From the IMG/VR virus record IMGVR_UViG_3300006358_000001: a DNA stretch of 64,000 nucleotides, one strand, 5' to 3'. This document shows, one piece after another, positions 31,189 through 64,000 of the stretch. The DNA is from an uncultured virus (IMG/VR IMGVR_UViG_3300006358_000001). Its lineage: Duplodnaviria; Heunggongvirae; Uroviricota; Caudoviricetes. The first letter of the stretch is position 1, and the number at the start of each line of letters is the position of its first letter. The translations under genes and the position numbers were made by a program. The notes beneath the pieces were generated by a model, which made no database searches, was not told the DNA's origin, and saw nothing but the letters and a program-made list of their open reading frames with translations.

Positions 31189-31191
31189 CGG

Positions 31192-31665: not shown

Positions 31666-31686
31666 TCTGGTTTCTCCCTTCGAGAA

Positions 31687-34089: not shown

Positions 34090-34098
34090 TTGCCTCTC

Positions 34099-37084: not shown

Positions 37085-37087
37085 GCG

Positions 37088-37564: not shown

Positions 37565-37583
37565 GTGACTTCTCCTTTGAAGA

Positions 37584-38282: not shown

Positions 38283-38291
38283 AGCAGCGCC

Positions 38292-41073: not shown

Positions 41074-41078
41074 AGGTC

Positions 41079-41354
41079 TCAGCCCTTTCTCGCTTCAGCC
41101 TTCGGAGGTTCAGCCTTCGGAGGTTCGTTCTTCGGTGGCTCATCCTTCTTCGCTTCCTTCGGCGGCTTCCCACCAGCGCCACCCGTAAGCTCGTAAGGCT
41201 TCGGGTCGCACTTCGCGAGGATCGCTTCCAGCTTCGCGTAGTAAGGTTCGGTCATGGGGATATCGGCCTCAGCCCCACGCTGAACGACGACGTTGTTTCC
41301 AGCGTCGTCGAAGAAGCCCATAGGCTGCTTGCCGATGTTCTTGATGTGAGCCAT
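41079..41354 (-). CDS. Small capsid-adjacent protein with an EPPK repeat tail
   Basis: GGGAG RBS; 15-bp tandem repeats at 41094-41138. Confidence 0.65.
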   Translation of the reverse strand: MAHIKNIGKQPMGFFDDAGNNVVVQRGAEADIPMTEPYYAKLEAILAKCDPKPYELTGGAGGKPPKEAKKDEPPKNEPPKAEPPKAEARKG

Positions 41355-43053: not shown

Positions 43054-44241
43054 TTACGCCTTCTGCCTGCCCGCAGTCTTCCAGCGATTCTGGATGTTCT
43101 CGTCGTACTCGCTGTACGCCTTCGCACGCGGATCACCGATGCCGGTGTCGTTGGTGCGCATCACGCCGATGACGTGATTGAGGCTGTTGTGCCCGCCGCT
43201 GTCAGGCAGCACCGCCAGCGTATTGAACGAGGCAGTGATCATGTCGTCGTTCCAGTCCTTGGCGGTGTCGCCCATCTTGGCGGCGACGACCTGACGACGC
43301 ATGTCGGCATCGGTCTTGCCGTCGATGACGAGCGCATCGCCGATGATCGCCTTCGCACGCGTCACCGTGGCGGCGCGATCCGACACCAGCTTGTCGATCT
43401 GGGCCGGTGTCAGCTTCGCATCGCCAAGCTGCTTCTTCAGCGTCTCGATCTCGGCGAGCTTGGTCTGCACTTCGGCCTTCGCGTTCGCCGCTTCGGTCCG
43501 TGCAGTGGCGACGTCGTTCTGCGACGTTGTCTGCGCCGCCGCTAGTGCGGTCTGTGCAGCGGCGACTTCAGCTTGCAGATTAGCAATCCGACGCTCGACG
43601 ACCTGCACGTCACGCTCTTCCATTTCAACCGAGATGCCGTCCACTTGAATCGTTCTGGTAGCCATGTTCGTTCTCCTTTGATGATCAACATTGTCGCCCA
43701 TACGCAGCTTGGGTCCACCTCGTGCGGTATGGGTGATCGCAACGTGGTTGGCACGAATCGCTGTTTGCGTGACATCGTACTTCTCACCATCCTTGGTCAC
43801 ACCGTCGGCCCACTGTAGCTGCGCACTGTAGCCGACCGACAGTTGAGACTTCCCGGCCTTCACGACCTCGATGGCTTCAGCATCCATCAGGATCAGCGGC
43901 ACGCGGATGAACTCGCCATCACGCACGATCTCATCGTCGAGACGACCGACGGCATACTTGCGCCAGTTCTTTGCGGTGACGGGTTCGGATGGATGCTCGA
44001 CGGTGACCGGCTTGTGAGCCAGCGACGACATTGCATCAGCGGAGAACACTTCGGTCTCAGGTCGATAGACCCGGACCTCCTTGAGATCGGGACGACCGAC
44101 TTCGCGGCCCTGATAAATCTGGATGCCGGTGCGTGCGATGCGCGGGCGGCAGATCATGTAGCCGTCGCCGGTCTCGCGAAGACCGTTCTCGTCGGCGAAC
44201 ATCTTGGAGTCTAGCGCGAACGTCTCGGTGAAATCAGGCAT
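43054..44241 (-). CDS. DUF2213 prohead protease/scaffold
   Basis: IARTGIQIY, PVTVEHP, LSVGY, NHVAI...ARGG; coiled-coil C-terminal half. Confidence 0.9.
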   Translation of the reverse strand: MPDFTETFALDSKMFADENGLRETGDGYMICRPRIARTGIQIYQGREVGRPDLKEVRVYRPETEVFSADAMSSLAHKPVTVEHPSEPVTAKNWRKYAVGRLDDEIVRDGEFIRVPLILMDAEAIEVVKAGKSQLSVGYSAQLQWADGVTKDGEKYDVTQTAIRANHVAITHTARGGPKLRMGDNVDHQRRTNMATRTIQVDGISVEMEERDVQVVERRIANLQAEVAAAQTALAAAQTTSQNDVATARTEAANAKAEVQTKLAEIETLKKQLGDAKLTPAQIDKLVSDRAATVTRAKAIIGDALVIDGKTDADMRRQVVAAKMGDTAKDWNDDMITASFNTLAVLPDSGGHNSLNHVIGVMRTNDTGIGDPRAKAYSEYDENIQNRWKTAGRQKA

Positions 44242-44243
44242 GC

Positions 44244-44669
44244 TTACTTGTCCTTCTGTGGCGCGTTCAATTCTTCCTTGCGCCTGAACTCTTTGATCTC
44301 TTCGGCCAGCACCGTAACGCGGTTGCACATCTCTGTCAGTTCAGGATGACTCAATTCCGCTGGCGCACGTAGCCCCAACAGTTTCTCGTTGCGACCGTCG
44401 AGACCGTAGACAATGAACACGCTGTGCCGCGCCTGCGCACCATAGCGGTGACCTTCGAGCACAATACACGGCGCGTGCGCATCGAGGATGATCGCCGACG
44501 ACATGAACTCGCGCCTGAACGCGATGTCGGTCATGAACTTGTAGGCGAAGTATGCCGGGATCGCGATCAGCACGGTCAGCAACAGCATCAGGATGTTCGT
44601 CAGGCTCATCGACCTGATGACGCCGAACGCCCGCTCCAGTATGCCGGTCTGGCCTTGCTCCACTTCCAT
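44244..44669 (-). CDS. Membrane protein
   Basis: Hydrophobic segment LTNILMLLLTVLIAIPAYFAY. Confidence 0.65.
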   Translation of the reverse strand: MEVEQGQTGILERAFGVIRSMSLTNILMLLLTVLIAIPAYFAYKFMTDIAFRREFMSSAIILDAHAPCIVLEGHRYGAQARHSVFIVYGLDGRNEKLLGLRAPAELSHPELTEMCNRVTVLAEEIKEFRRKEELNAPQKDK

Positions 44670-45459: not shown

Positions 45460-46470
45460 TCATAGCGTGCTGCTCAACTCCATCAAGCCCGCAGTCGTCG
45501 GCAGTAACGGATAGATGCGGATTGCCTGCAGGTCGGTGCCGTTCTCATAGATGCTCTCCCACGGAGCCGGTCGATCCGCCGCGATCAATGTGCCTTCGAC
45601 CTGACCGAAGCCGTTGCACGCCACCTCGATCCGCGTCTGCGTGATCGTGACAGCGATCCGGTTCAGCATGCTGGTGTAGTAGACGCTGGGCAATGTCAGA
45701 GCGAGGCCAGTCGGCGTCTGGATCAGTATGTTCGACCCGCTCGCCTTGATGTCCAGCCCACTGAGTCCGTCGGCTGACCTGATCGTGAATTGTGGAGGAA
45801 GATCGCCAGTCGGCGCTGGCATGAAGTCCACGGTGAACGTGACGTCGGCGAGCAATGCCGTCTTCAGTGCGCCGATGTAGGCTGGCACCATCGCGCTCGT
45901 GGCATCTCGATAATCATAGCCGGTCGCGGACAGTCCAGTCGGATCGTAGCCGGAGTTCATCACCAGAGGATCAGCGCCGATCATGCTGCCGATGCCGGTG
46001 GCGCTGCCATCGCCTTCGGTCGTGCCATCCCATGATCGACCCGGCGCGATGAAGTCGATGGCGAGTAGCGCATCCGCTGGCACCCATTCTGGTTTGCCAG
46101 CGGGAGGAGGAGCGGCAGAGAACACGATGGGGACCGACGTCGAGACGTTCGCGCCGTTGCGCACGTAGACCATCTTGGTGCCATCGACCGCAGGCGGCGT
46201 GACGGCTTGAGCCACCAGTATCGTTGCGTCAACGAATGTCGTCGGCACATCGGACCCGCCGTAATTGATGACGCTGTCCGCGAGGAAGTTGGTGCCGACC
46301 ACCGTCAGCACGAATGCCGCGCTGCCTGTCACCACCTCAGTCGGATCAATGGCGGTGATCGTCGGCGGCGGCGGCGGCAGTAGACCGCAAGTCCATCGCC
46401 CTCCGTCCCACGTCCACTTGCTGTAGACTTGGCCGTAGACTGGTGCGCTGGGGAAATCGAGTACCGCCAT
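45460..46470 (-). CDS. Fibre-associated protein: N-terminal FPxxP/WDG motif + IPT/TIG-like Ig domain + beta-rich C-terminal domain
   Basis: LDFPSAP...WTWDGGRW; PTITAIDP...LTVVGTNF...TTFVDAT. Confidence 0.75.
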   Translation of the reverse strand: MAVLDFPSAPVYGQVYSKWTWDGGRWTCGLLPPPPPTITAIDPTEVVTGSAAFVLTVVGTNFLADSVINYGGSDVPTTFVDATILVAQAVTPPAVDGTKMVYVRNGANVSTSVPIVFSAAPPPAGKPEWVPADALLAIDFIAPGRSWDGTTEGDGSATGIGSMIGADPLVMNSGYDPTGLSATGYDYRDATSAMVPAYIGALKTALLADVTFTVDFMPAPTGDLPPQFTIRSADGLSGLDIKASGSNILIQTPTGLALTLPSVYYTSMLNRIAVTITQTRIEVACNGFGQVEGTLIAADRPAPWESIYENGTDLQAIRIYPLLPTTAGLMELSSTL

Positions 46471-46471
46471 A

Positions 46472-46888
46472 TTAAATCCTCACCGCTCTGAGCGTTATGC
46501 TGGCGTGCGCCAACGTAACATCAACCACGCTTGGTGCCATCACCTGAAGAAGATCGCCGGGATCGAGAAGCGCCGTCACGTATCCGGAGAACATGACGTG
46601 GAATAGCTGCGTCGCCTTGAACACCGCCACGCCGATCACTGTCATCTTGCCCATCGGATCGATCCGCCTGATCTGGAATTGCGCGTCGGCAGTTGGTGCC
46701 GACTCACAGAAGCCACGTGATCCTACGAAGTCGATCTCCACCGCGTCCACCATTGGCACATTGATGCGCCACGTCGGCGAGCCCGGAAACTGAAACACTA
46801 TCGGCGCAGTCGGCACCAGCGCAGGATCGCGCCGCAGATGCCGCTCCGGCTTGATCAGTGTCGAGACGATCCGGACCGGCCCGCTCAT
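46472..46888 (-). CDS. Putative virion structural protein
   Basis: Beta-rich ORF coupled within the fibre cluster. Confidence 0.6.
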   Translation of the reverse strand: MSGPVRIVSTLIKPERHLRRDPALVPTAPIVFQFPGSPTWRINVPMVDAVEIDFVGSRGFCESAPTADAQFQIRRIDPMGKMTVIGVAVFKATQLFHVMFSGYVTALLDPGDLLQVMAPSVVDVTLAHASITLRAVRI

Positions 46889-49764
46889 GCCCTTGCCTCA
46901 AGCTGAGCGATGCGATCCTTCAGGCTGTTCAACTCTTGCAGCAAATCCACACCGCCAGCCGACATGTCAACGAACCCGTAAGCGGTGACGGGACCTGTTG
47001 AGGTGATCGGGCTGTTGACCTGCAGCGAATTGTTGAGCGTCAGCGTATTGCTGATCGTCACCGGCATCGAGAACGATGCTGCGCCGTAGCAGGTGAAGCC
47101 GTTGTTCGCCTGCAACGTCGCAGCCATCACCGTGCCAGTAGAGACAGTGAGGTTGGCACCATTGATGACGAGATCGCCGGTCATCACACCGCCGGTCGTC
47201 TTCAGCATGTAGTAAGGATCAGGGACCGCCTGCACCCATTGATAGGTGTAGTCGATGTCGTAGACCTGAATGTAAAGCTGGCCCTCGACGTTGTCCCACC
47301 ACAGCACGTTCTCTTGCACGACAGGCTTCACGTCTTTGACGTGAACCATACCCATGTGAATATCGACGTAGTTCTTCGTCGCGACACCAAGCGACGTTAT
47401 CGGATCGCGACCGGCGCGGGCTTCGCCAGTGTAGCGATCAATCGTGAAGTTGATGTCGCGGTTGCGACCGAAGTTGTCGTAGCTCGCGATCTCGAAGTTC
47501 GAGCCCTCCCAGTTGTCATTCGGGAAGCCATCAGGGTCTGCGTTGCCAAGCGTAATGTCCCAGCGCAGAACGCCTGATTTCTTGCCAATGATCTGCGCAG
47601 TCAGACCATCCTGCCATCTATCGACCGCGATCCACCCACCAGTCGAATAGTCATCCGGCCCATCAACGGTGACCGTCTTGCCGTAGACAGTCGGTGAAGA
47701 TAGCTGGCCAGTCACAGCAAGATCGCCAGTGATCATGCCGCCGGTCAGCGGGAGATACGCTCCACCACCGCCGCCGCCAGCGACGGCGTCAACGTACTGC
47801 TTCGTCGCGGCGTGAAGCGGCAATGTCGGATCGCGGCCAAGCGTTGCATCGAACATGACCGTCAGGTTCGGAGTATTGATGTCGGCCCGCGCTTCGAGCC
47901 TCGAATAGATATTGAAGATGCCAGTGTCGTGCTCAATGGAGAAAGCAGGATTCGTGCTCCCGCTGAAGCTGCGATAAAGACTGAAATCGTTGTCGCCAAT
48001 GATGCCAAGCGTCATCGTCCAGTAATCGACGCCGCTCACCTTGCTGATGATCTGGGCGCTCGACAGCGTGTCGGGACGTTCGAGCACCAGCACCGGATCG
48101 ATCTTCGAGATCGCGAGATCGCCAGTGATCTCGCCGCCGCTCAGCGGAAGATAGTCTCCGGTCGCACCGCCACCACCGCCCGCAGCAACCTGCGCATCAA
48201 CGTATTGCTTCGTCGCGGCATGAAGTGGCTGTTGAGGATCGGCCTGCAATAGGAGCGGCTTGTATAACGCCACCCCAGAAGTCTTGCTGGCGATGAAGAT
48301 CGTGGACATCCCATCGCTGCCTTTGAAGCTATGGGAGTCAGCGAAGTATTCGTTGGCAGAAACGCCAAGCCGCAGCGTCTCCTTGGCGGCGTTGGTGCCC
48401 CACACCGTCACCCGATTGGCTGCGGTGTCCACCGTTGCGAACTTGTTGAGTCCAAGCAGATAGCCGGTCGCGGAGAGATCGCCGGTCAGTGTGCCGCCGG
48501 TCAGCGGAAGATAATCGCCAGTCGCACCACCGCCGCCTGCGACGACAGTCCACGCCGCATCCTGCCTCGCATACTGTTGACCATCGACTGGTGCATCGAC
48601 GAACGAACCACCAGCCATCGCGATGCCGTCAACGTACTGCTTCGTCGCAGCCTCAAGCGGCTGCGTTGGATCGCGAGCGAGCCACACGCCCTCGCTGACA
48701 GTCAGGTTCGTCGCTTGGATTCCGGCCTGCGCTTGCAGCACCGTGCTAAGCGTGACCCAGCCAGCGGCAGACTCGATGTGAAATACCTTGCCGCCGCTTA
48801 CGCCATCAGAGTCGAATTTCTCGATGTAGAAGTCGTAGTTGATGTTGTCGCCAAGCACGACGCGCCACTCCGGCACGCCGCCTCGCTTGGCTTCAATGAT
48901 GTTGTTGGTCGTGGCGTCTGCGCGATCAAGCGTCAGAGTTGGTGACGCCGTCGCGATTGTGAGATCGCCGGTCAAGATGCCGCCAGCGAGCGGGAGATAA
49001 GCGCCGCCCTCGCCACCACCTCCGCCGCCAAGCGCTATCGCTTCATCGACGTACTTCTTGTTCGCGGCGTGATACTGGTCAGTCGGTTGCTGCGTCAGGA
49101 TGATTGGCCTGAACGCGGTGACACCAGTGCTCTCAGCCCGCAGCAACTCGATGGCCTCTGCGCCGATGCTGATCTTGGTGTTTGTGCCCCAGAAGCCGGT
49201 GCTCTTCTCACCGAAGTGCATCGATGTGTTTGTCTGGTTGCCGCCCGGCATCAATATGATCTGGGAGTCCCAGTTCGTCATGATGATGTCGCCGGTCATC
49301 GTGCCGCCGGTTAGCGGAAGATACGCGCCGCCTTCACCACCGCCGCCACCAGCGATGGCAGCGATCTGCGCATCGACGTATTTCTTGTTGGTCGCCTGCA
49401 ATTCGTTGATCGGGTCGGCGTACAGTGTGATGCCGCCGGTTGCGCGAACATCCAAGCCAGTCTGGTCGAAGGAATACTTCTCCACACCACCGAAGATCAG
49501 ATACAGCGCATTCTCGCTGCCCTTGAGTCCAGTGGACGGATCAGCGCCGAAGTAAATCTCCGTGAACGACACATCGACGGTGGATCGTGGAAATCCGACG
49601 CTTCCCGTCATCGTGCCGCCAGCGAGCGGCAAATAGTCGCCGGTCACTTCGCCACCTCCGCCACCGTCTCCGGTGCCGATGGTCACCCACTTCTCGCCGT
49701 CCCATTCGTAGGGGCCGAAGATGTCGCCGACTACAGGAGAGTCTGGGAAATTCATTGCCATCAT
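46885..49764 (-). CDS. Modular repeat fibre protein
   Basis: N-terminal NFPDSP...WDGEKW; six YLPLxGGxxTG...KxYVD modules; foldon-like motif; C-terminal coiled coil. Confidence 0.8.
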   Translation of the reverse strand: MMAMNFPDSPVVGDIFGPYEWDGEKWVTIGTGDGGGGGEVTGDYLPLAGGTMTGSVGFPRSTVDVSFTEIYFGADPSTGLKGSENALYLIFGGVEKYSFDQTGLDVRATGGITLYADPINELQATNKKYVDAQIAAIAGGGGGEGGAYLPLTGGTMTGDIIMTNWDSQIILMPGGNQTNTSMHFGEKSTGFWGTNTKISIGAEAIELLRAESTGVTAFRPIILTQQPTDQYHAANKKYVDEAIALGGGGGGEGGAYLPLAGGILTGDLTIATASPTLTLDRADATTNNIIEAKRGGVPEWRVVLGDNINYDFYIEKFDSDGVSGGKVFHIESAAGWVTLSTVLQAQAGIQATNLTVSEGVWLARDPTQPLEAATKQYVDGIAMAGGSFVDAPVDGQQYARQDAAWTVVAGGGGATGDYLPLTGGTLTGDLSATGYLLGLNKFATVDTAANRVTVWGTNAAKETLRLGVSANEYFADSHSFKGSDGMSTIFIASKTSGVALYKPLLLQADPQQPLHAATKQYVDAQVAAGGGGGATGDYLPLSGGEITGDLAISKIDPVLVLERPDTLSSAQIISKVSGVDYWTMTLGIIGDNDFSLYRSFSGSTNPAFSIEHDTGIFNIYSRLEARADINTPNLTVMFDATLGRDPTLPLHAATKQYVDAVAGGGGGGAYLPLTGGMITGDLAVTGQLSSPTVYGKTVTVDGPDDYSTGGWIAVDRWQDGLTAQIIGKKSGVLRWDITLGNADPDGFPNDNWEGSNFEIASYDNFGRNRDINFTIDRYTGEARAGRDPITSLGVATKNYVDIHMGMVHVKDVKPVVQENVLWWDNVEGQLYIQVYDIDYTYQWVQAVPDPYYMLKTTGGVMTGDLVINGANLTVSTGTVMAATLQANNGFTCYGAASFSMPVTISNTLTLNNSLQVNSPITSTGPVTAYGFVDMSAGGVDLLQELNSLKDRIAQLEARA

Positions 49765-51008
49765 GCGTATCCTATTGTCCACCAGCCGGTGTTGCAGAGT
49801 TGCATGTATCGGAATCGATAGATGATGCTGTTGGTGCCTGTGACGACCGCGCCGCCATATGGTTCTTGAAACGCGCCGTAGATCGTGACGTCACCAGCCA
49901 TCGCAAGTCGTCCATCTCGAACAGGCTGTCCGCCGTTGATGTTGCAGATGCCGCTCGCGAGATCGACGGTGATCGGTCGATGACCATTCCACGATCCCCA
50001 CGCGTCCCACGCGTTGGTCAACATCAGGTAGAGCGTCGCACCATCGTTGCGCCAGAACGTGCCATACGCGCTGTAAGCGATGCGATAGGAGTCCGGGTTG
50101 GTGCTCTCAATCGCAGGGACGCGCACGTGGTGACTGGATTGAAAGTGAGCACCATTGAACGTGATGTAGATGCCGGTGTTTCCATAGTAGTAGGTGCCGC
50201 TGCTTCCGCTGCCCGCGAGCATCCACGCTGTCGCCTGCACTGTGCTTGCCGCGATAAGAGAGTCGGAAGTCCAGATCGTCCCGGCGTGAATTGTATTGTT
50301 GACGTACAGCGGAGCGCCGTTGATGACCAAGCTCGCGCCGTCGTAGCCGTAGTAGATGCCACCGTTCTTCGTGCACATGAAGTAGCCGGTGTAATTCAAT
50401 CGGTCAGCGTAGATGTCCCCATTGCCATAGAGCGGACCGTTGATGGTCGCAGCGCCGTGGCTGGTGAAGCCGTTCGCCGTGATCGGACCAGTGACAGTCA
50501 TTCCGCTTGCGGCTTCAAACGTGACGGTGCCCTGACCTGCTGTCGCGTTGCCGCCGTTGTAGACGACGCGCACATCGTAATCCGATGCAGTCGGTCCGCT
50601 CGAATGAAAGTCGAAGTAGACCGGCGTCGCGGCAGCGAGCGAGCCCCACTCGTTGAACGTCTCACTGAGCGACGTCGAGCCCATCGTGAGGCTTGGCACC
50701 GCGAGGTTGCCCGACATTGTGTCACCAGTCTTCGCGACGTAGCCGCTCAGATCAGGCGGTGTCGGCACGTTGGTGGCGATTGCCGTATCGACGTAGCTCT
50801 TGGTCGATGCATGCAGTGGCACCGTCGGATCGGCAGGCAACAGCAGCGGGCCGACCATCGTGTCGCCGAGCAGTTTCACATAGAGCGAGTCGGCTTCGTC
50901 TTGCGTGAAGCTATTGCCTGCGCTCGTGCGCATCCACTTCACGCCATCGAACGCGAAAGGTCCGTGGACTTCTCCAGCTATCGGCGCGTCTGGGAAGTTG
51001 TAGCCCAT
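49761..51008 (-). CDS. Fibre / receptor-binding protein
   Basis: N-terminal NFPDAP...FDGVKW; tip EPYGGAVVTG...RFRYMQ...WWTIGYA. Confidence 0.8.
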   Translation of the reverse strand: MGYNFPDAPIAGEVHGPFAFDGVKWMRTSAGNSFTQDEADSLYVKLLGDTMVGPLLLPADPTVPLHASTKSYVDTAIATNVPTPPDLSGYVAKTGDTMSGNLAVPSLTMGSTSLSETFNEWGSLAAATPVYFDFHSSGPTASDYDVRVVYNGGNATAGQGTVTFEAASGMTVTGPITANGFTSHGAATINGPLYGNGDIYADRLNYTGYFMCTKNGGIYYGYDGASLVINGAPLYVNNTIHAGTIWTSDSLIAASTVQATAWMLAGSGSSGTYYYGNTGIYITFNGAHFQSSHHVRVPAIESTNPDSYRIAYSAYGTFWRNDGATLYLMLTNAWDAWGSWNGHRPITVDLASGICNINGGQPVRDGRLAMAGDVTIYGAFQEPYGGAVVTGTNSIIYRFRYMQLCNTGWWTIGYA

Positions 51009-51009
51009 C

Positions 51010-51513
51010 TCACTTCCGCCCCTTCTTGCTCTCCAGCCTCTCCAGTCGAGCGATGATATCCTTCAGTGTGATCGAGATCGCCCGCATGTCAACGAAGTCG
51101 CCTTGCTCCGGCGGCGGCGGCGTGGTGAACGTGCCTGCGACTGGATCATAAATCTTGCCGCCCAAATCTGTCTGCGGGTCCGTGCCGGTGTAATCAGTTA
51201 TTTCACCAAGCAGACCACCGGCAGGAAACAACATCAGCGGATCGAAGACCGCAGCGCCGACGATGTACGCGTTGTGAGCTTCCTGAAACATCGCGGTGAA
51301 TTTCACCGTCTCCAGTTGGAAGTTCTCGACGTTGAACAGCGACGCCATGTTGATCGGATTGATCGTCGGCTCATCTGGCGGCTTTGCGTGAACGTACTTG
51401 TACCAGTCTTGATCGTCGCTGACGCGCTTCGCGAACATCGCGCCGTTCGGTGCCGCTTCGGGTATCTGGTCCGGCCTGTAAGTGACCCACTCACCGTGAT
51501 CGATAATGTTCAT
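51010..51513 (-). CDS. Fibre assembly/chaperone-like protein
   Basis: IDHGEWVTYRP...DWY; paralog of 28854..29321. Confidence 0.7.
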   Translation of the reverse strand: MNIIDHGEWVTYRPDQIPEAAPNGAMFAKRVSDDQDWYKYVHAKPPDEPTINPINMASLFNVENFQLETVKFTAMFQEAHNAYIVGAAVFDPLMLFPAGGLLGEITDYTGTDPQTDLGGKIYDPVAGTFTTPPPPEQGDFVDMRAISITLKDIIARLERLESKKGRK

Positions 51514-52550
51514 GCGTAGCCCACCGTCCACCATCCAGTCGTCAGCACCTGCCAGTAGCGGTGCCGCTTGTACCAAGCGCCGCTTGGCTGATGCCCTGAC
51601 ATGCCCGTCACTATCGATCCGCCCCAAGGCTCGTATAGCGCCTGCGATGGAGGATAGTTCGCATCACCTGCGTGCACCATTCGCTCGTTCGAGATCGGAA
51701 AGCCGCCGAAGTCTCGCGTCGTCCAGAACCTGTAGGCGACGCCACCACCGAAGCTCCATCCGCCGTACCAGAAATTATGATCGCTGCCGAGACCGAAGTT
51801 GCACGCGAACGCGCCGGGCCGATGGAATGTGAGGCAGGCGTCGTGACCTCCGCCGCTCTGAATCTCAAGGGACCCGCCACCTCCGCCCTGCGTAAGCGAG
51901 CCCGGAGAGAGGTTCGGATAAAGCAAGCCAGACATCGAGCCGCCAGCAAGAGGAAGATAAGCGCCACCAGCGCCCGCTGCCCTCCCATCGACGTACTGCT
52001 TGCTCGCGGCTTCCATCGGAGATGTCGGATCGCGACCAAGCACCGCCGTGCCATTGAGCCAGATGTGCCCGGCATTATCGAACCTTGCATCGTTGCTGAT
52101 CGGATTGCCTGCGCCATCCATGCTGCCGAACGCGAGATAGTTTCCGCTGTCCAAGAAGTAGCCCTTCGCCACGCCTCGACCGCCCGTCGATCCAATCGAG
52201 TGCACGCACACCGATGGCTGCGAGTAGATGCCGCCGCCCATCTGCGGGACGATGCGACCGCCCTCTGCCCTGATGCTCCCGGTGACGTGCGCTTCGCTCG
52301 CGACTGTGATGGCATCCGCTGTAACGCCGCCGCTGAACGAAGGACTGACCGTCGGCGCACGCGATGAGTCAATCGGGTGAACGTGATCGCCTCTCGTGTA
52401 CTCGCTGGCGACGCCGGGCGTGCCGGGACCGTTCATCGCTGGCACAGCGCTCGATGGCGGAGCACCTGCGATGCGGTCCCACTTCACGCCATCAAAGATG
52501 AAGGGCGGAAATGCTTGGCCTGCTACTGGCGCATCGGGAAAGTTAAGCAT
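51510..52550 (-). CDS. Fibre / receptor-binding protein (tandem paralog 3)
   Basis: NFPDAP, RGDHVHP, FACNFG, YRFWTTRDFGG, WWTVGYA. Confidence 0.82.
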   Translation of the reverse strand: MLNFPDAPVAGQAFPPFIFDGVKWDRIAGAPPSSAVPAMNGPGTPGVASEYTRGDHVHPIDSSRAPTVSPSFSGGVTADAITVASEAHVTGSIRAEGGRIVPQMGGGIYSQPSVCVHSIGSTGGRGVAKGYFLDSGNYLAFGSMDGAGNPISNDARFDNAGHIWLNGTAVLGRDPTSPMEAASKQYVDGRAAGAGGAYLPLAGGSMSGLLYPNLSPGSLTQGGGGGSLEIQSGGGHDACLTFHRPGAFACNFGLGSDHNFWYGGWSFGGGVAYRFWTTRDFGGFPISNERMVHAGDANYPPSQALYEPWGGSIVTGMSGHQPSGAWYKRHRYWQVLTTGWWTVGYA

Positions 52551-53583
52551 AGCCGACCGTCCACCAGCTACTCGTGAGCGCCTGCAGATATCGATACCGC
52601 GCCCACACGTGGCCGACGTAAGCCTGCATCGCGCCCTGCCCGGTGATCACAGCGCCGCCCCAGTTCTCAGCCAGTGCCGAATACATGGTGTGCGTGTGAT
52701 CGGTGCAGAACGCGAACCGCGTGTCAGTGACAGGAAGCCCGCCGAAGTCGCGCGTTGTCCAGAACCGATATGCAACGCCAGCGCCGAACGACCAGCCGCC
52801 CATCCAGAAATTCCAGTCGCTCGACATGCCGAAGTTGCAAGCGAAGTAACCGGCGCGATGAAACGTCATGTAGGCGTCGCAGTTGTTGCCGCGTATCTCA
52901 ATCGATGGCGCGGGATTTCCCATCAGCGATCCCCACGTTGGATTCGCATAGAATTGTCCGCTCATCTGCGCACCGGACAACGGCATGTAGGCTCCGCTGA
53001 TCGAGCGCGTGTCCACGTAGTTCTTCGTTGCGACATCGAGACCGCCAGTCGGATCGCGCGAGACCAGCATCGTCGTCGCGAGATACAGATTGCCGTAGAT
53101 GTCGAGGTTCGCCGGATTGCTGACCGGCAGGCCATCGCCCCACATGTTCGCGACGGCGATGCGATTGTTGGTGTCGAGCATCAGCCCCATGACGTAGCCG
53201 CGATCCCACGAGTAGCAGCCGATTGACGGCTGTCCGCCTTCAGCGGATATCTGCGAGATGATGCTGCCGCCGTTGGCGTAGGTGTTCGCGTTGCTGCCGA
53301 AGTTGTTGGCCACGACGCTGTCGGCCCACATGCCGCCAGTGAAAGCCGGGTTCACTGTTGGCGCACGCGATCCATCAGTCGGATGTGCGTGGTCGCCTCT
53401 CTGGTAGAGCGTCAATGCGCCGGGCGTCGCAGCACCATCAACCAGCGGTGCACCGTTCGATGGCGACATCGTTGTAACGTCAGCGACGCCAACCCACTTG
53501 ATGCCGTCCCACTGAAACGCAGGACTCCCGCTCGCCGGATATCTCTCGCCAATGATCGGTGCATCAGGGAAGCTGATCATCAC
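52543..53583 (-). CDS. Fibre / receptor-binding protein (tandem paralog 2)
   Basis: Same motifs as 51510..52550. Confidence 0.82.
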   Translation of the reverse strand: MMISFPDAPIIGERYPASGSPAFQWDGIKWVGVADVTTMSPSNGAPLVDGAATPGALTLYQRGDHAHPTDGSRAPTVNPAFTGGMWADSVVANNFGSNANTYANGGSIISQISAEGGQPSIGCYSWDRGYVMGLMLDTNNRIAVANMWGDGLPVSNPANLDIYGNLYLATTMLVSRDPTGGLDVATKNYVDTRSISGAYMPLSGAQMSGQFYANPTWGSLMGNPAPSIEIRGNNCDAYMTFHRAGYFACNFGMSSDWNFWMGGWSFGAGVAYRFWTTRDFGGLPVTDTRFAFCTDHTHTMYSALAENWGGAVITGQGAMQAYVGHVWARYRYLQALTSSWWTVGYA

Positions 53584-54613
53584 ACATATCCAATCGTGTA
53601 CCAGCCGGTCGTGAACATCTGCAGGTAACGATAACGCACAGTCTGGTTTAGCGGCGTGAACAGCGAGACGCCTGTGCCACCTGTCACTGCAGCACCGCCA
53701 TATGGCTCAACAGTCGGGACCGTCATCGGCGTGTAGTAGTCGCCAGCGTGCGGCATCCGCGCATTGCTCGCCGGGTATCCGCCAAAGTCGCGCGTCGTCC
53801 AGAAGCGATACGCCGTCCATCCGTGCGACCAGCCGCCGAACCACATGTTGGCGTCGCTTGAGAGTCCGAAGTTGCAGGCGAACGCTCCCATCCAATGGAA
53901 TGAGATGAACGCATCAGACCCGGCGTCACCGCTCCTCACCTCCACCGTGCCAACGCCGCCTGCCGTGCCGACACCAGTCCACGCTTGTGCGCTGGTGAAT
54001 TGCCCGGACATCGAGCCGCCCGTTGTCGGCAGATACGCGCCACCGTAGTTGCGAGCATCGGCGTACTGCTTCGTCGAGACGTCATTCCAGTTGATCGGGT
54101 CGCGACCGAGAACGATGGTGCCGCCGAGCCAGAAATTTCCACCGCCATCGAACCGCGCGACGTTGCTGTTCGGCACGCCGTTGCCGTCCATGCCGCCGAA
54201 CGCGATGTTGTTGTTGGTGTCGAGAAACATTCCCATCGCCCAGCCGCGATGCGTCGAGTACAGGCAGACCGATGGCTGATCGTAAAGTCCCGGCATCTGC
54301 GAGACGATGCGACCGTTGCTCGTCGTGATCGAGCCCCTGATCGCCATCCACCCGGAGACATACAGCGAGTCGGTGTTCAGCGTGCCAGCGAATGACGGAC
54401 TCACAGTCGGCGCACGCGTCGTGTCGGTCGGATGCTGATGATCTCCGCGCGAGTACGCTTCGAGCGCACCGGGAGAAGCAACGCCATCCATCAGCGGCAG
54501 CGCACCGGATGCAGCGACACCACCTCCGCCAGCCGCAGACGTCGTCCACTTCACACCGTCCCACGTGAAGGGACCGAACACCTCGTTGAGCGCTGGCGCG
54601 TCTGGGAAGTTGA

Positions 54614-54617
<4 letters not shown>
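53580..54617 (-). CDS. Fibre / receptor-binding protein (tandem paralog 1)
   Basis: Same motifs as 51510..52550. Confidence 0.82.
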
Positions 54618-56984
<2,367 letters not shown>

Positions 56985-56995
<11 letters not shown>

Positions 56996-59900
56996 CGACT
57001 CTCGCCTCCAGTGCAGTGATGCGTTCGAGCGCAGCCTGCAAAGCCTTCGTCAGCATCGCAATGTCAGCCGCAGGATTTGCAACGGCCTGCACCCACGCTG
57101 TGCTGTCCCCATCATTGAAGCGCACGTAGAGCACGCCATTGCTTGAGCGCCACCAGAACGAACCATCCGGCGCATCGACCGGCGCACTGTCGGAGATCAG
57201 CGCGTAGGTCGGCGGACCATCCGCGCCTGCAGGTCCTTGCGGGCCTGCTGATCCATCTGCGCCTGCAGGACCTTGCGGTCCCGCTTCGCCCGCAGGTCCC
57301 GGTGCTCCATCAACTCCGTCAGCGCCCGGTGCGCCGTCAGCACCAGCCGGTCCAACTTCGCCCTGCGGTCCAGCAGGTCCCGCAACGCCTGCAGGTCCGG
57401 TCTCACCTACTTCACCCTGCGGGCCTTGCGCACCTGCCGGTCCCTGCGGGCCAGCCGGGCCTTCATCGCCTTGAGGGCCTGCAACTCCATCTGCACCGTC
57501 AGCACCCGGAGCGCCCGCAGGTCCGATCTCACCTTGAACACCTTGCGGCCCTTGTGGTCCCACTCCGCCATCTGCACCTGCAGGACCAGCCGGTCCCGCT
57601 GGACCTTGAGGACCTTGAGCGCCTGCTGCATTCGAGATCACCCACTGCGATGACGATCCATCATCTTCAACGTAGTAGACGAACATCTGACCGACGCGCG
57701 TGTCGAACCAGAGATCGCCATCGATCGGATTCGCTGGCGGCGTGTCCGATGTCGTGACGCTTGCGCCACCACCTCCACCACTACCAATCCTCGCATCGAC
57801 GTATTGCTTCGTCGCCGCTTCCATGGCGGTGACAGGATCAGCGGGCAGCACCACCGGCACCGTCGCGCGGATGTAGTCTTCGTTGACCTCGAACTTGCTG
57901 ACTCGCTTGATCGAGATGCCGATGGTCTCAGCACCTTCGACAGGCTCTGATCCGTACAAGCCGGAGCCGTACATCGCAGAGAACGTGTAGCCCGGTGACT
58001 GCGGCCTATCGCGCGGCAACTGCAACTGGTTCGAGAACTGATGCGGGCCGTTGGTCTGGAAGGTGGCGACCGGCCATCCATCCAAGAACACCATCAGCGC
58101 TTGCCAGTCCGGAATCTCATCGACCGCAGCGAAGCCGAAGCCGGTGTTCTTCCTCGCACCGAACGTCAGCGTCGGCGTGCTGTCATCCGGAATATTCTCC
58201 GGCAGATGCAGCTTGCCGGTGAGCGTGCCGCCCGTCAGCGGCAAGTAATCTCCAGTTACTTCACCGCCGCCAGTGTTCGATCCGATCTGCACCCACTGCG
58301 ATGATGTGCCGTCGTTCAGTCGAACGAAGAGCGTGCACGTGCGCGTGTCGAACCACAGCGTGTTATCGCGCACGCCTTGCGGCGGAGAGTCCGACGAGAT
58401 GACAGGCCACTGCGCTTCGACAATCCACGCAGCACTCGTGCCGTCGTCGTAGTAGATGAACATCGTGCCCGACGATGACTGCCACCACAGATCACCGTGC
58501 ACAGCCGTCGTCGGCACTGTATCGGAGATCGTGACACGTGCACTGCCACCTCCACCGCCTTCGCCGTGGATGACCTCCTGCCACGTCGCGTTGATGCGCC
58601 CGTAGATTCTCCCGTCGATGGGTGCCTCTTGCACCTCACCGGGTTGACCCATCGCACCTTGCGGACCCTGCGGACCGATGTCGCCCTGCGGTCCAATCGG
58701 GCCAGCCGGGCCGGTCTCGCCTTGTTCGCCTTGCGATCCTGATTCGCCCTTCTCGCCCGGAACGCCTTGCGCACCTGTCGGACCCGGCTCGCCCTGTTCG
58801 CCTTGCTCACCCTGCGGACCGATTGCGCCGGGCATTCCCTGAATGCCTTGCGGTCCTCGATCACCAACTGGCCCTTGTGGGCCAGTCGGGCCTTCAGGAC
58901 CCGGCACCGTTGACGCAGCGCCTTCAGGACCCGGAGGACCTTCAGGACCTTGCACACCTTGCGGCCCCTGCGATCCGGCCATGCCGGGCGGGCCTTGGAT
59001 GCCTTGCGGACCGCGCGGACCTTCGAGCCCGTCCTCGCCATCGACGCCATCGCGACCGGGCGGACCCTGCGCACCATCGACGCCATCGACGCCGTCGGCA
59101 CCTGCCGGACCCGCGACACCTTGCGGACCCGGTGCACCGTCAGCGCCGGGCGGTCCCTGTTGTCCCTGATCGCCCTTCGGCCCCTGCGGTCCGGGCACCG
59201 TGCTATCGGCACCAGCGACGCCCGCAGCGCCTTGAGGACCCTGCGGCCCTTGCGGTCCCTGCGCTCCCGTCTCTCCCGGTGAGCCATCGACACCAGCGAC
59301 ACCAGCCGGACCTTCGGGACCACGCGGACCGTTCGCGCCTTGCGGGCCGGGCGGTCCCATCGCTCCCGGTGCGCCATCAATTCCATTCGTGCCGTCGGCA
59401 CCCGGCGCACCGTCGGCACCAGCCGGGCCTTGCGCACCAGCGACGCCTTGCTCGCCTTGCGGTCCCTGCACGCCATCGACGCCGGGCGGACCTTGCGGAC
59501 CGGGCGGACCCATCGGGCCGACCTCGCCGCCGCCCTCGCCTGTGCCGGGCGGACCCTGCGGACCTACCGGGCCTTGCTCACCCTGCGGGCCTGCAGGACC
59601 CTGCACGCCCTGCACACCTTGCGGTCCACTCGGACCAGCGATGCCTTGCTCGCCTTGTGCACCTGCATCACCCTTCGGACCCGCAGGACCCGGCACGGTT
59701 GAAGGCGGACCGACCGGACCCTGCGGACCCTCTGCACCGGCAGGACCCGGCACACCTTGAATGCCTTGCTCACCTTGTGCGCCAGCGACACCTTGATCGC
59801 CCTTCGCTCCCGCAGGACCTTCGACGCCTTGCGGTCCTGCAGGACCGGGCACCGTCGATGCGTCGCCAGTGTCGCCCTTCTCTCCAGTCAGGCCTTGCGG

Positions 59901-60752
59901 CCCTGCAGGTCCTTGCTCGCCCTGCGGTCCCATCGGACCAGCGACACCTTGCGGGCCAACTGGACCGGGCACTGTCGAGTCTGCACCCGGCAAACCTTGC
60001 GGGCCTTGCTCACCTGCAGGACCTGTCGCGCCGGGCGGACCGGGCACTGTCGATGCTGCGCCGGGCGGACCTGCAGGACCTATCGGACCTTGCGGGCCTT
60101 CAGCGCCAGCGGGACCGGGCACTGTCGATGCAGGACCTTGCGGGCCTTGCGGACCCATCGGACCTTGAACACCTGCAGCGCCGGGCGGTCCCGGTACAGT
60201 TGAGTCTTCACCTTGCGGGCCGGGCTCTCCCGGCAAACCCTTCGGGCCAGTCGCGCCGGGAGGACCCGGCACTGTTGAGTCCGCGCCCTTCTCACCCTTC
60301 GGTCCCTGATAGCCGCGATCACCTTGCGGTCCGACAGGACCACGCGGGCCGGTCGCACCATCGAGACCGGGATCGCCCTTGTCGCCCTTCTCTCCCTTCG
60401 GACCTTGCGCACCCTGCGGGCCTTGCGGACCAATCGGGCCTTGCGGTCCTTGCTCTCCTCCGGGCGTGCCGCTGAGCACACCATCGATCAACGTCAGGGG
60501 GGAAGCGACGACGATGCGCTCAGCGGGTCCTCTCGCTGGGGAGGTGCGACCAACGAGAGTGTTCGGATCAGACTCGATGACGATGTCGTCGTTGTAGTTC
60601 GAGAAGATGCCTTCCTGAACTCGATCACCGTTCTCATCACGGTGCAGACGATTGATCAGCCAGACGCGCGGATCGGCAGGCGTCTCGTGGGGAAGCTGAC
60701 TCGCATCCCCAACGAAGCCACGCATCTTTGCGCGTGAGTTGCCATCAGCCAT
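56985..60752 (-). CDS. Large collagen-like fibre/scaffold protein
   Basis: About 600-aa Gly-X-Y tract plus a shorter second tract, foldon-like motif, four WW/WF modules. Confidence 0.88.
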
Positions 60753-60930
60753 TATCCGGTTCTTCCGGTATCACTGTTGCCGGTGGCACGAGTGGCACGC
60801 CGCTGAGTTGATACCACGTCGGCAGATGATGCACGCCCCACAACGCTGGAGTCGCAACCTCTGCTTCAGGATACGGTGGATTGACCGGATGCTGGCGATC
60901 CTTGCCTTCGTCGATTGGCCCTCGATACAT
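60745..60930 (-). CDS. Small Pro-rich hypothetical protein
   Basis: Fills the gap between the MuF gene and the collagen gene; GAGG RBS. Confidence 0.5.
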
Positions 60931-60933
60931 TCC

Positions 60934-61836
60934 TCACCACTCCTCATCCTGTTCTTCGATTGGAGCGTATCGATTATCATCGAACGGCACGAACGCGCAT
61001 CTGCAATTCGGGTGACTCGGTATCAAGCCTTGCGCAGTGTCGATGTCGTATGGTCCCTCTTCAGCGATATCGTTGCAGTCGTCGCACACCTTGTCGTCGC
61101 CTGATGTGAGTACGTTGACCAGAAACGGTTCGCCCCAGATGCCCTTCTTCCGCTTCGCTGCCTTCTTCTTCTTCGCTGGCTTCTTCTTCGCGTCGTGCAT
61201 GTGAGGCACTGGCATCCATTCCGGATTGACGCCGACCTGCTTGACGCCCTGATCCTTGTAGGCAACGAGCTTGCCCGCGTTCACCGCGCGGACCACTGCG
61301 GTGTTCACCAGCATGTTGAGCCGCAGCTTCGTGACCTTCTCCAGCACGATGCGCAGATCGCGCATCAGGATATCCGGTGACGTCTTGCGCTCCACGGCAT
61401 CGCTCACGTGGCGCAACGTGCGTCGGATCGTTTCGTTCGCGATGCCCGTAACCTCGCTCATTACAGCGAATCCGTGCACGGCGTTGACGTCGTCGAGATC
61501 GAGGTGATCAAGCTCAGTGCGCAATTCCTGCGCCGCCTGTTCAACGCCCTTCTGCACAGCACGCTCGATCAGACTGCCGAGCCAGTCCGGCGGATTGAGC
61601 AACGCGCTATCGACCGTCGCCTGTATCACCGACTCCGTGCGCTGCAGCCGATGCGACGATGCCTCGCCCCAGTTGATCAGCGACATCATCGGTTCACGCT
61701 CTCGAAGCCCTGCGATGTCGCTGTCCACGATAGCCTGACGCATGCCGCGATGAAGCTCGAACACCTTGCGCGTGACCTTGCCTCGTCCTTCGCTGCGCAG
61801 GCTCAAGCTGCGTGTGGGATCGCGCGATCCTGTCAT
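60934..61836 (-). CDS. Phage head morphogenesis (MuF/SPP1 gp7-like) protein
   Basis: RDPTRS, LVNTAVVRAVN, GDDKVCDDC...IPSHPNCRC. Confidence 0.85.
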   Translation of the reverse strand: MTGSRDPTRSLSLRSEGRGKVTRKVFELHRGMRQAIVDSDIAGLREREPMMSLINWGEASSHRLQRTESVIQATVDSALLNPPDWLGSLIERAVQKGVEQAAQELRTELDHLDLDDVNAVHGFAVMSEVTGIANETIRRTLRHVSDAVERKTSPDILMRDLRIVLEKVTKLRLNMLVNTAVVRAVNAGKLVAYKDQGVKQVGVNPEWMPVPHMHDAKKKPAKKKKAAKRKKGIWGEPFLVNVLTSGDDKVCDDCNDIAEEGPYDIDTAQGLIPSHPNCRCAFVPFDDNRYAPIEEQDEEW

Positions 61837-62345
61837 TGCTCTGCCGCCACCCACTGCGACGAATTCCCGTCGAAGTATTTCACGTAGAGACGCTTCGCAG
61901 CACTGGGACCTTCGGCGGAATTCCACCAGATCGATCCATCGGCAACGCCCTCCGGTGCGGTCTCTCCCGTGTAGGCACCACCGCCAGAGAACACGACGCT
62001 GGTCGATGGCGTGATCGATATCATGACTGAGACGTCAGCCGCCTGATCGGTTGCGTTGGCCTTCGATCCCGCTCTCACCTTGAGCCAGCCCAGCGCCTGC
62101 GTCCACACCTGCGCTACGTGGATCGATGTGCCGCGCCTCGCCGTGATCGTGATCTGCTGACCTTCGTCATTGACCAGATCGAAGTAGTTCACACCATCGA
62201 CCGAAGTTTGAAACGTCATCACTGGCGTTGCGTGTTCGGTGTAGTCGTCGGGAATGGTGATGCGCACGACGCGACCGCCGGAGCAATCGACGCCTTCGGA
62301 CAAGCTCTCACCGGCTGCGATGTTGGCTGAAAGGTTGGCGAGCAT
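61833..62345 (-). CDS. Virion protein: beta-sandwich + C-terminal WW module
   Basis: IAAGESLS...TFQTSVDGVNY...LKVRAG; GSIWWNS...YFDGNSSQWV. Confidence 0.7.
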   Translation of the reverse strand: MLANLSANIAAGESLSEGVDCSGGRVVRITIPDDYTEHATPVMTFQTSVDGVNYFDLVNDEGQQITITARRGTSIHVAQVWTQALGWLKVRAGSKANATDQAADVSVMISITPSTSVVFSGGGAYTGETAPEGVADGSIWWNSAEGPSAAKRLYVKYFDGNSSQWVAAEQ

Positions 62346-62557
62346 CACTTGTTCTCCCACTTGCTTTCGACGGAGTCATAGACCCACTCACCCGTGCGAT
62401 AGATGCCGTCCTTCTCATCCTGATACTTCTGGATGCGAAGCTGCATGTCCTTGTAGTCCTCGAACTCCCAGTAGCCGGGACCGAACTGGCTGTAGTCCGG
62501 CGGATCAGGATCGTCGATCCACGGCGCGAAGTTCGGCTCGCTGCGAATGCGGCTCAT
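62345..62557 (-). CDS. Small hypothetical protein
   Basis: Coupled to both neighbours. Confidence 0.55.
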   Translation of the reverse strand: MSRIRSEPNFAPWIDDPDPPDYSQFGPGYWEFEDYKDMQLRIQKYQDEKDGIYRTGEWVYDSVESKWENK

Positions 62558-63999
62558 AGCTTGATGCCCTTCTTCTTCGCGAGATTGATCAGGCTCTTCT
62601 CGTAATCGGAGTCACGCTCCTTCGGCATCACGCCCATTTGCTCCCACAAATCTTTCTCAGGCCACCACCATGTCGCCTGCGCACCTGCGGGTGTGAGCCG
62701 ATAGCCGTCTTCCTTGTTCAGCTTGTCGATTGCGCCGTGCATGATCTCGGTGATCCACTTGCGCTGAGCACCCGATGCAGGTTGCTCGTTGAGCTTGCCC
62801 TTGTCGTACAGCACGAGCCGCTCAGCAGCGCCGACCAGTTCGCTCTTCTTGTACTTCTCGCCGGGCTTCTTCGTCTCCTGCCACTTCTTGTACGCCTTCT
62901 CGTGACGCGCCTCGACTTCGTATGCACGCGCGATCAATTCCTTCTTCGATAGTTCGCCATCACCACCGTGAGCGAGCACGCGCTGCATGCGCTCAAGCTG
63001 TCCGCTCATGTCATCGTTGACGCCTGTGCCAGTGAGACGTCCCCACGAGCGCATCAGCCACAAGTCCATCGTGATCGGATTAAAGTTGCCGTTGAGGTTC
63101 TGATAGAAGCCGTTGCCGATCTTCGGTCCGAGATACGCGGAGCCGAGCACCATGTCGTCCTTGTTGGTCGCGCCGGGCTCGACGCCCTTCTTCGTGCCAA
63201 GGATCACGCCAGTGCGCTTCTCCAGATCACGCGCCGTCATCTCCTCGTTGAAGAACTCGATGGTCTTATCGATCCCGATCTGATCGATCATCTTGTTGAC
63301 CTTGATCAGGTTGTTCGAGATGTTCGGATCAGCAGCGCTGATGTCGAGCGGGAAGCGACCGTTGCCCGGCGACTTCTCTTCCTGTTCGAGATAGCTGGTG
63401 TAAGCCTGATCGGCGAGATCGGCAGAACGGGAAACGATCTCACCCTGCGATGTGATCGCGAGCGCCACCGTGTACATGAACTTCTGACGCGGATCGTCGG
63501 CCATGCCGGGATATATCTTCTCGGCAACGCTCATCGCCCGCTTCATCGTGTCGTCGTACCAATACTCGCCACCCTTGCCGTTGATCAGCGCATCGCGCAT
63601 TTCAAGCGCAACGAGATCGGTCAGGAATTTGTCGCTCTCCGGCGTGCGGTTCTCGACGGTCAATTCCTTGACGCCGAACTTCTCTTCGATGATCCCCTGC
63701 GCACGCTTCATGATCATCTTCGCGGCGTCGCCGACGTTGACCTCGCCACGCTTGATGTTCGGATGCTCCGACGTCAGCGACATCGATGTCAGTCGGTATC
63801 CCGGCGTGTCGGTTCGCTGGCTCCAATGATCGCTGACACCCTTCCAGATGTCTTTTGCTCCCGGTACTTGGGATTCTGCAATGACGCTTTCGTATACTTC
63901 TCGGCTGCGGTCTCTTTGCTGTCGCTCCGTGCCGTCTTCTGGGAGTGTTTCTGGTGGGACGAATTCTCCGTGTCCCTTCTCGTAGTCGATGGGGTTGTC
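62554..63999 (-). CDS. C-terminal part of a large protein with an HhH-GPD glycosylase-like domain (5'-truncated by the window edge)
   Basis: The frame is open from 63999 to ATG 63783; YWY, LAITS, GPKIGNGFYQNL...TMDLWLMR, AQATWW. Confidence 0.65.
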   Translation of the reverse strand, partial: DNPIDYEKGHGEFVPPETLPEDGTERQQRDRSREVYESVIAESQVPGAKDIWKGVSDHWSQRTDTPGYRLTSMSLTSEHPNIKRGEVNVGDAAKMIMKRAQGIIEEKFGVKELTVENRTPESDKFLTDLVALEMRDALINGKGGEYWYDDTMKRAMSVAEKIYPGMADDPRQKFMYTVALAITSQGEIVSRSADLADQAYTSYLEQEEKSPGNGRFPLDISAADPNISNNLIKVNKMIDQIGIDKTIEFFNEEMTARDLEKRTGVILGTKKGVEPGATNKDDMVLGSAYLGPKIGNGFYQNLNGNFNPITMDLWLMRSWGRLTGTGVNDDMSGQLERMQRVLAHGGDGELSKKELIARAYEVEARHEKAYKKWQETKKPGEKYKKSELVGAAERLVLYDKGKLNEQPASGAQRKWITEIMHGAIDKLNKEDGYRLTPAGAQATWWWPEKDLWEQMGVMPKERDSDYEKSLINLAKKKGIKL

Positions 64000-64000
64000 A

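Follow-up and report, generated by a model that had tools for sequence, protein, structure and literature searches.

The branched tailspike complexes of phages CBA120 and G7C, in which several receptor-binding proteins are hung on each other via N-terminal modules, use T4 gp10-like XD domains to do so. In the dual receptor-binding protein (RBP) systems of the Klebsiella phages KP32, K11, and KP34, RBP1 contains a branching domain and RBP2 begins with a conserved N-terminal peptide, and experiments established the two as partners (PMC13352976). Here, we describe a locus of comparable layout in a 64,000-nucleotide stretch of DNA from an uncultured virus of the class Caudoviricetes (IMG/VR record IMGVR_UViG_3300006358_000001), which we refer to as the window. 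A fiber cluster at positions 45,460 to 60,752, with all genes on the minus strand, carries two small modules, an N-terminal leader (the N-motif, FPxxP…WDGxxW) and an internal module termed WW (Table 1). The leader is probably the mounting end of seven different fibers, a reading suggested by its being the sole conserved element ahead of seven shafts. Our best explanation, which we hold tentatively and put somewhat below an even chance, is that the cluster encodes a multi-fiber receptor-binding kit of anchor-branch design in which the leader would mount the seven fibers and WW would be its most likely docking node.

A regular expression for the leader, run on all six reading frames of the window, matched exactly seven times, each time at an open reading frame (ORF) start (upper coordinates 46470, 49764, 51008, 52550, 53583, 54617, and 56995), and no matches in 30 shuffles, a control that was mononucleotide and therefore crude. 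For WW, a first regular expression recovered seven modules, and a relaxed expression and a hidden Markov model (HMM) recovered eight: four in p1255, two in p793, one in p965, and one at the C terminus of the protein encoded at 61833-62345 (p175). HMMs built from the window copies (seven leaders and eight WW modules) matched no other window ORF of at least 60 amino acids (aa) at a domain E of <0.05. The leader is 25 to 37 residues long and WW about 40. The seven leader genes, the eight WW modules, and their hierarchical distribution had all been reported in the original prediction, and each held up: p1255 has four WW modules and no leader, p793 and p965 have a leader plus WW, and five proteins (p345, p346b, p346a, p415, and p336) have a leader without WW. 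Our annotations likewise agree with those it had proposed, with Collagen in p1255 and p793, a MuF-like gene, a DUF2213 gene, and an Ig-like repeat in p336.

AlphaFold2 (AF2) models WW confidently as a small beta unit, with a predicted local distance difference test score (pLDDT) of ~80 for the p175 copy, and the natural leader-WW tandem of viral locus L009 reached a pLDDT of 88-95 across both modules. As modeled, WW is a small beta-rich knot built into fiber shafts. The top fold matches of the WW model were the collagen XV and XVIII trimerization domains, weak matches that fall below meaningful levels (3n3f_B, Z 4.1, root mean square deviation [rmsd] 5.5 over 46 aa; 9bnb_A, Z 3.6; best Foldseek E 0.42). 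Searches of PDB sequences with p175, p1255 aa 735-1045, the WW profile, and the p175 family profile found nothing.

In the arrangement that we propose, p1255 would be a trunk fiber with its own N-terminal anchor domain. Seven further fibers or adhesins, each beginning with the leader, would be mounted by their leader end, and the leader would dock on the WW node in fiber shafts, giving KP32-like branching with an unrelated module pair. The proteins p793 and p965, which have both modules, could extend the tree. We infer this order of branching, along with the site of the trunk on the virion, from how the modules are distributed. The layout of p1255 itself begins with a 95-aa N-terminal domain that has no leader, followed by about 620 aa of collagen, a foldon-like motif, WW1, and WW2, and continues with a globular stretch, WW3, about 150 aa of collagen, WW4, and a C-terminal coiled coil. 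The 95-aa domain is common to L021 and to protein P0026, and nothing matched it in PHROGs and Pfam scans. In p793, the leader is followed by a shaft domain, WW, about 210 aa of collagen, a second WW, a short collagen run, and a C-terminal domain with an S74 intramolecular chaperone.

One argument for pairing the two modules is their joint occurrence in other phages. Both were counted by HMM in 18 records (leader threshold E ≤ 1e-5), a sample that is small and phylogenetically clumped. They occur together in 12 of the 18 (the window, G002 to G006, S-TIP28, MA10, P-SSM2, S-CRM01, S-CAM7, and S-B68), and a strong leader without WW was seen in none. Five records chosen regardless of WW (P-SSP7, Syn5, T4, RHEph04, and Silvergun) contained no WW; the leader HMM gave one weak partial match each in P-SSP7 (E 2.6e-3) and Syn5 (E 2.6e-4) and none in T4, RHEph04, or Silvergun. 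The original prediction had put forward joint occurrence and correlated copy numbers as a check; the modules do go together, but their copy numbers show no tight correlation. Leader/WW counts were 5/4 in P-SSM2, 5/10 in S-CRM01, 3/1 in S-CAM7, and 2/10 in S-B68, and five viral contigs counted over their whole length gave 3/6, 3/3, 2/1, 1/1, and 1/1. In MA10, a T4-like cyanophage, 10 of the 11 leader matches fall at annotated coding sequence starts in the baseplate and fiber region, and 15 WW matches are spread over six ORFs, with three or four copies consecutively. Each cluster has a WW-bearing protein without a leader, followed by leader genes, as in L006, L010, L011, and L013; in L009, four consecutive genes read collagen-WW-receptor-binding domain (RBD), leader-WW-RBD, leader-WW-RBD, and leader-RBD. 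The tails of the carriers are unrelated, comprising a podovirus and three myovirus types (T7-like, T4-like, P2-like, and E217/Pam3-like), and it is because WW is the sole detected shared element that could partner the leader across them that we take it as the candidate partner.

Run against 1.84 billion proteins, the leader profile matched 7,220 cluster representatives at E ≤ 0.001; of the best 150 of these matches, 113 have the full motif within their first 25 residues, 14 have tandem, near-full-length internal copies of an intermediate form, and 23 have partial WDGxxW-type repeats alone. We also noted six long proteins (P0202, P0137, P0141, P0143, P0144, and P0215) made of tandem 40-residue units that look intermediate between leader and WW. 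A tblastn search with one WW module matched 482 of 50,697 phage records at a permissive E ≤ 1, with 147 covering at least 80% of the query; the strong matches are all cyanophages, and the weakest groups may be chance. With the same program, the p793 leader gave no match in phages and the p346a leader gave a single one (E=2), where the S-TIP28 pectin-lyase gene begins. The motif is beyond the sensitivity of tblastn; HMMs found it readily. Genome contigs scanned with an L009 fiber yielded no relative.

The podovirus S-TIP28 has both modules on a T7-type anchor. Its tail fiber (RBP1) contains a Phage_T7_tail anchor at aa 6-103, WW at about aa 130-172, and an endosialidase-type beta-helix, and the next gene (RBP2, annotated as a pectin lyase) encodes a leader at aa 1-33, a foldon-like motif, and a pectin-lyase beta-helix. 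Among nine viral loci with a related T7-type fiber, one (L053, near-identical to S-TIP28) has WW in the fiber together with an adjoining leader gene, the remaining eight have neither, and none is discordant. Separately, a small structural protein of S-TIP28 (record positions 38268-38360; L024:9594-9941) starts with a weak partial leader (E 5e-4), as does one of Syn5 (record positions 37638-37709; E 2.6e-4), a phage without WW.

The likeness to the KP32-type systems is one of layout. In both, a virion anchor precedes a small internal module in the first protein, the proteins encoded after it have a short conserved peptide at their start but are otherwise different, and the gene order is RBP1 then RBP2, which is exactly what S-TIP28 has. 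Profiles of the leader and WW gave no match to KP32 bases 30,000-41,119 (gp37 and gp38), and we therefore rejected the KP32 docking peptide and branching domain as homologues of the leader and WW; the layout is analogous and does not imply membership. There are further differences: up to 7-10 leader-bearing proteins occur per genome here, there are many copies of the node per protein, leader and node are perhaps mutually related, and their pairing is putative. Judging by these comparisons, the design principle is one already known from Klebsiella phages, and the leader/WW pair appears unrelated to theirs in sequence. Pfam detected no T4 gp10-like domain in the S-TIP28 fiber or, in contrast to the XD domains of the CBA120 and G7C complexes, in the window proteins. 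No description of the leader/WW motif pair was found in a full-text literature search, which excludes subscription journals.

Two other joints are worth comparing. The original prediction had likened the leader and WW to dockerin and cohesin, a comparison that fails at the level of fold, since neither PF00404 nor PF00963 appeared in a Pfam scan of all cluster proteins. What remains is the idea that one small docking module, common to many different proteins, fits repeated sites on a scaffold; the window proteins differ in being trimeric fibers, and both of their modules are tiny (~30 and ~40 residues) and perhaps mutually related. The joints of the T4 long tail fiber (gp34-gp35-gp36-gp37) are similar in that separate fiber proteins are joined end to end by their termini. 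Profiles of the leader, WW, the foldon-like motif, and the intermediate repeat gave no significant match to T4 gp34-gp38 (best domain E 41 or worse), and the N terminus of T4 gp36 was rejected as a leader equivalent, as its NFPxxPxGD resemblance scores -1 bit.

A third short motif, EAPxDGxxYGRxxxxW, was missed by the original prediction and is present in p1255 and p965. Its family comprises 14 aligned members, these two copies included, with P7, D9, G10, Y13, R15, and W20 invariant; further copies are at L013:3942-4022 and L015:2481-2561. The L015 member matches foldon tags of T4 fibritin at E 2e-10 to 5e-4, in a PDB search that gave 565 sequences at E up to 10 (best, 2.4e-10); the matched constructs include the collagen-foldon fusions 1nay and 9gfr, and by this match the motif is identified as a foldon-like trimerization unit. 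In p1255, it stands at the end of a collagen run, as in the engineered fusions, and small proteins of L013, L015, L019, and L020 terminate in it, rather as T4 fibritin terminates in the foldon; in the window fibers, by contrast, it is internal and not C-terminal. Leader and WW profiles run against the PDB found no foldon. By hhalign, the foldon-like motif has a probability of 20% with the leader and 7% with WW, values obtained with very short profiles.

Several observations weigh against WW as the partner of the leader. Copy numbers do not track each other, with leader/WW ratios running from 3/1 to 2/10; WW is at least as numerous as the leader in 10 of the 12 co-occurring records, a relation that fails in S-CAM7 and in G004 (100% complete, two leaders and one WW), and the close relative L062/G002 has six WW modules, four of them trunk nodes, but three leader genes. 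Bacillus phage Thrax3 has one WW and no leader (1 of the 18 records), and the two-by-two table from these records is not a fair sample, as the records outside the five chosen regardless of WW were picked through WW or tip-family matches and are mutually related. A strict scheme of one socket per plug was rejected on the counts of whole records. The two modules also look alike, and there is a main competing explanation, which we consider possible though doubtful: leader, WW, and perhaps the foldon-like motif would be variants of one small beta-hairpin knot that keeps trimeric shafts in register, the N-terminal copy being merely the first knot, and the fibers that bear it would be mounted on some virion protein other than WW. 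Leader and WW share a PxxPxxG-x-x-aromatic start and an aromatic-x-aromatic-[DN]GxxW end, with an extra hairpin between the two in WW, and some database proteins have tandem internal copies of an intermediate form, FPxxPxxGDxFYRTDxxxLYRWDGxxW, which in P0144 alternates with collagen runs. An HMM of 47 such units matches the window N termini (E 1.8e-8 to 0.07) and, weakly, WW at its exact positions (full-sequence E 1.2e-4 for p1255 and 1.8e-4 for p793 among 3,181 ORFs), and one MA10 site is matched by both the leader and the WW HMMs. WW also behaves as a shaft element in occurring in tandem (WW1-WW2 of p1255 and the rows of MA10), four of the eight window modules abut collagen, and its fold matches, weak as they are, are collagen trimerization domains. 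The trimerizing role assigned to the foldon-like motif and the uncoupled copy numbers suit this explanation too. A common origin of the leader and WW appears likely from their sequences, and because they resemble each other, their co-occurrence could merely reflect one module pool of recombining fiber genes. On the other side, the hhalign probability between leader and WW is 0.4%, so homology is not statistically supported, and collagen occurs within 40 aa of just 11 of the 36 distinct WW modules, none of them from MA10, a count on which collagen nucleation or registration was rejected as a general role of WW. A series of shaft knots would also leave unexplained a 30-residue leader that mounts fibers on podovirus and T4-, P2-, and E217-like tails that share no tail protein, and knots serving as docking nodes are compatible with it as well. 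A variant that we regard as quite improbable joins the two ideas: leader and node would be alternative forms of a single foldon-sized beta-hairpin unit, pairing like with like as a portable joint, with a collagen tree held on the capsid via p175.

Two further alternatives both involve p175. The AF2 model of this protein has a pLDDT of 86.8, and its N-terminal domain is a confident jelly roll whose best fold match, a middling one, is a capsid chain of Agrobacterium phage 7-7-1 (9hz8_G; Z 7.6, rmsd 3.1, 104 aa); unrelated jelly rolls score Z 6.8-7.0, and other capsid or cement chains are lower (GP4, 5.8; KHP40, 5.4). It is unlikely, in our view, that in the window lineage the collagen tree stands on the capsid or neck and not on the baseplate, with p175 as a possible capsid-decoration protein presenting the WW node, although that capsid match would fit. 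All three lineage members (the window, L062, and L021) have the cluster placed between MuF and DUF2213 scaffold genes, and the tail module has fiber-sized genes of its own behind the baseplate J-like gene (p800 and p618) that lack both motifs. However, a Z below 8 may reflect merely a common jelly-roll arrangement, discoidin domains and YomS/XepA score alike, and Foldseek returned nothing for the domain at E ≤ 0.001. In the P2-like relatives L006, L009, and L011, moreover, P2-type baseplate genes (hub, W, J, and I) stand ahead of the cluster, which puts it where tail fibers usually are, the MA10 genes with leader or WW lie among baseplate and tail-fiber genes, WW is within the tail fiber itself in S-TIP28, and gene position is weak evidence for a place on the virion. 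The original prediction had read the MuF/DUF2213 placement as a sign of capsid or neck attachment; the placement proved conserved in the lineage, but the modules are in tail-fiber loci in every other carrier examined for context. We give only a slim chance to the other alternative, in which the leader docks on a separate small adaptor, such as the p175 jelly roll or its stand-alone homologues, and WW is incidental. The confident jelly roll favors it, as do homologues of p175 without the WW tail (P0133 and P0134) and the closest look-alikes of p175, which are uncharacterized phage proteins of ~110-130 aa, some from cyanophages. Against it, nothing ties p175 to the leader, and no p175 homologue is known from L009, L010, L011, or S-TIP28, though no search aimed at one was made there.

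The window spans the larger part of a metagenomic phage genome of myovirus type, and the phage is an uncultured myovirus with an E217/Pam3-type head. From position 64,000 downward, the minus strand encodes an ORF of 481+ aa, p175, the MuF-like gene, the fiber cluster, three small ORFs, the DUF2213 scaffold/protease (43054-44328), a cement protein of the E217 gp24/Pam3 gp6 family, the major capsid protein (PF09950; top PDB match 8hdt_A, E 2e-78), and head-tail joining genes, followed by baseplate genes, sheath, tape measure, and endolysin. The first of these ORFs (62554-63999, at least 481 aa), upstream of p175 and MuF, occupies a place in which one might look for a portal gene and had no match in Pfam, PHROGs, and NCBIfam scans. 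Behind the baseplate J-like gene, p800 (31687-34089, minus strand, 800 aa) matches PHROG 17470, of unknown function, at E 3.5e-172 and is probably an ordinary tail fiber or baseplate-distal protein of this phage.

Table 1. Coordinates of fiber-cluster genes, modules, and neighboring genes in the window.
Feature	Coordinates	Strand	Content or basis
p1255, proposed trunk fiber	56985..60752	-	Collagen PF01391 E 1.4e-100 (15 stretches); 4 WW, E 8e-21 to 6e-19
WW1 of p1255	58410..58529	-	HMM
WW2 of p1255, tandem with WW1	58281..58394	-	HMM
WW3 of p1255, directly ahead of second collagen run	57630..57752	-	HMM
WW4 of p1255, directly behind second collagen run, ahead of coiled coil	57081..57197	-	HMM
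Foldon-like motif (19 residues), end of first p1255 collagen run	58569..58625	-	Family alignment
p793	54614..56995	-	Collagen PF01391 E 5e-32; Peptidase_S74 E 5.3e-9; leader E 1e-13; 2 WW
Leader of p793, long type with 10-residue insert	56885..56995	-	Regular expression and HMM
WW module 1 of p793	56270..56386	-	HMM
WW module 2 of p793	55535..55651	-	HMM
p345, tip protein	53580..54617	-	Leader, GDHxHP region, C-terminal tip domain ending WYTIGYV
p346b, tip-protein paralogue with leader	52543..53583	-	Regular expression and HMM
p346a, tip-protein paralogue with leader	51510..52550	-	Regular expression and HMM
p205, ORF up to 205 aa between tip genes, start uncertain	51010..51627	-	
p415	49761..51008	-	Leader, gp34-trimer-like stretch (PF21446 E 5.1e-14), tip-type C terminus WWTIGYA
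p965, repeat fiber	46885..49764	-	Leader, repeated xQYVD shaft units, foldon-like motif, one WW near C-terminal part, coiled coil
WW module of p965	47224..47340	-	HMM E 1e-16
Foldon-like motif of p965	48541-48594	-	Family alignment
p138, small protein inside cluster	46472..46888	-	PHROGs 11585 and 22757, unknown function
p336	45460..46470	-	Leader, Ig-like (IPT/CoaZ) repeat (NF058597 E 3.5e-15), C-terminal domain
p175 (170 aa from Met)	61833..62345	-	Jelly-roll domain aa 1-113, linker, C-terminal WW module 61836-61970
MuF-like head morphogenesis gene, separates p175 from trunk gene	60934..61926	-	phrog_758 E 1.5e-13; PF04233 below Pfam cut-off

The tip proteins form a family of 21 aligned members in which the leader is kept (F4, P5, G21, and W24 invariant). 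The four in the window (p345, p346a, p346b, and p415) end in RYRYxQxxTTGW[WY]T[VI]GY[AV], just upstream of their stops (53580-53582, 51510-51512, 52543-52545, and 49761-49763, respectively). At about aa 40-65 of p345 (53580-54617) and its paralogues, the stretch PLMDGxAxPGxxxxYSRGDHxHPxD is 55-76% identical in about 100 otherwise unrelated proteins of ~500 aa each, many of them on contigs of ~13 kb. In the close relative L062 (contig G002), whose p175 is 82% identical, the window block made up of the three tip genes, p205, and p415 is missing between the p793-like and p965-like genes, and the tips therefore behave as an insertable cassette between conserved flanks. The record nearest to the window, G001, lacks a tip gene. 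Pfam and PHROGs scans returned no family match for the p205 ORF, which may, from its position, encode a fiber assembly chaperone.

If leader and node were two forms of one unit joining like with like, any leader fiber could hang on any node fiber across podoviruses and three kinds of myovirus, which would account for the mounting of ten or more different adhesins by T4-like cyanophages, and p175 would be a jelly-roll decoration protein presenting the node in the window lineage. If instead the leader docks on WW in the anchor-branch design that we favor, the pair would be a second, sequence-unrelated version of the Klebsiella anchor-branch joint, and a far more widespread one. A real pairing would provide a testable rule for which fiber hangs on which and would help in reading the host-range modules of marine and soil phages. 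Laboratory phage-host pairs could gain from it natural parts with which to exchange receptor-binding proteins; P-SSM2 and S-TIP28, both model cyanophages, are among the carriers.

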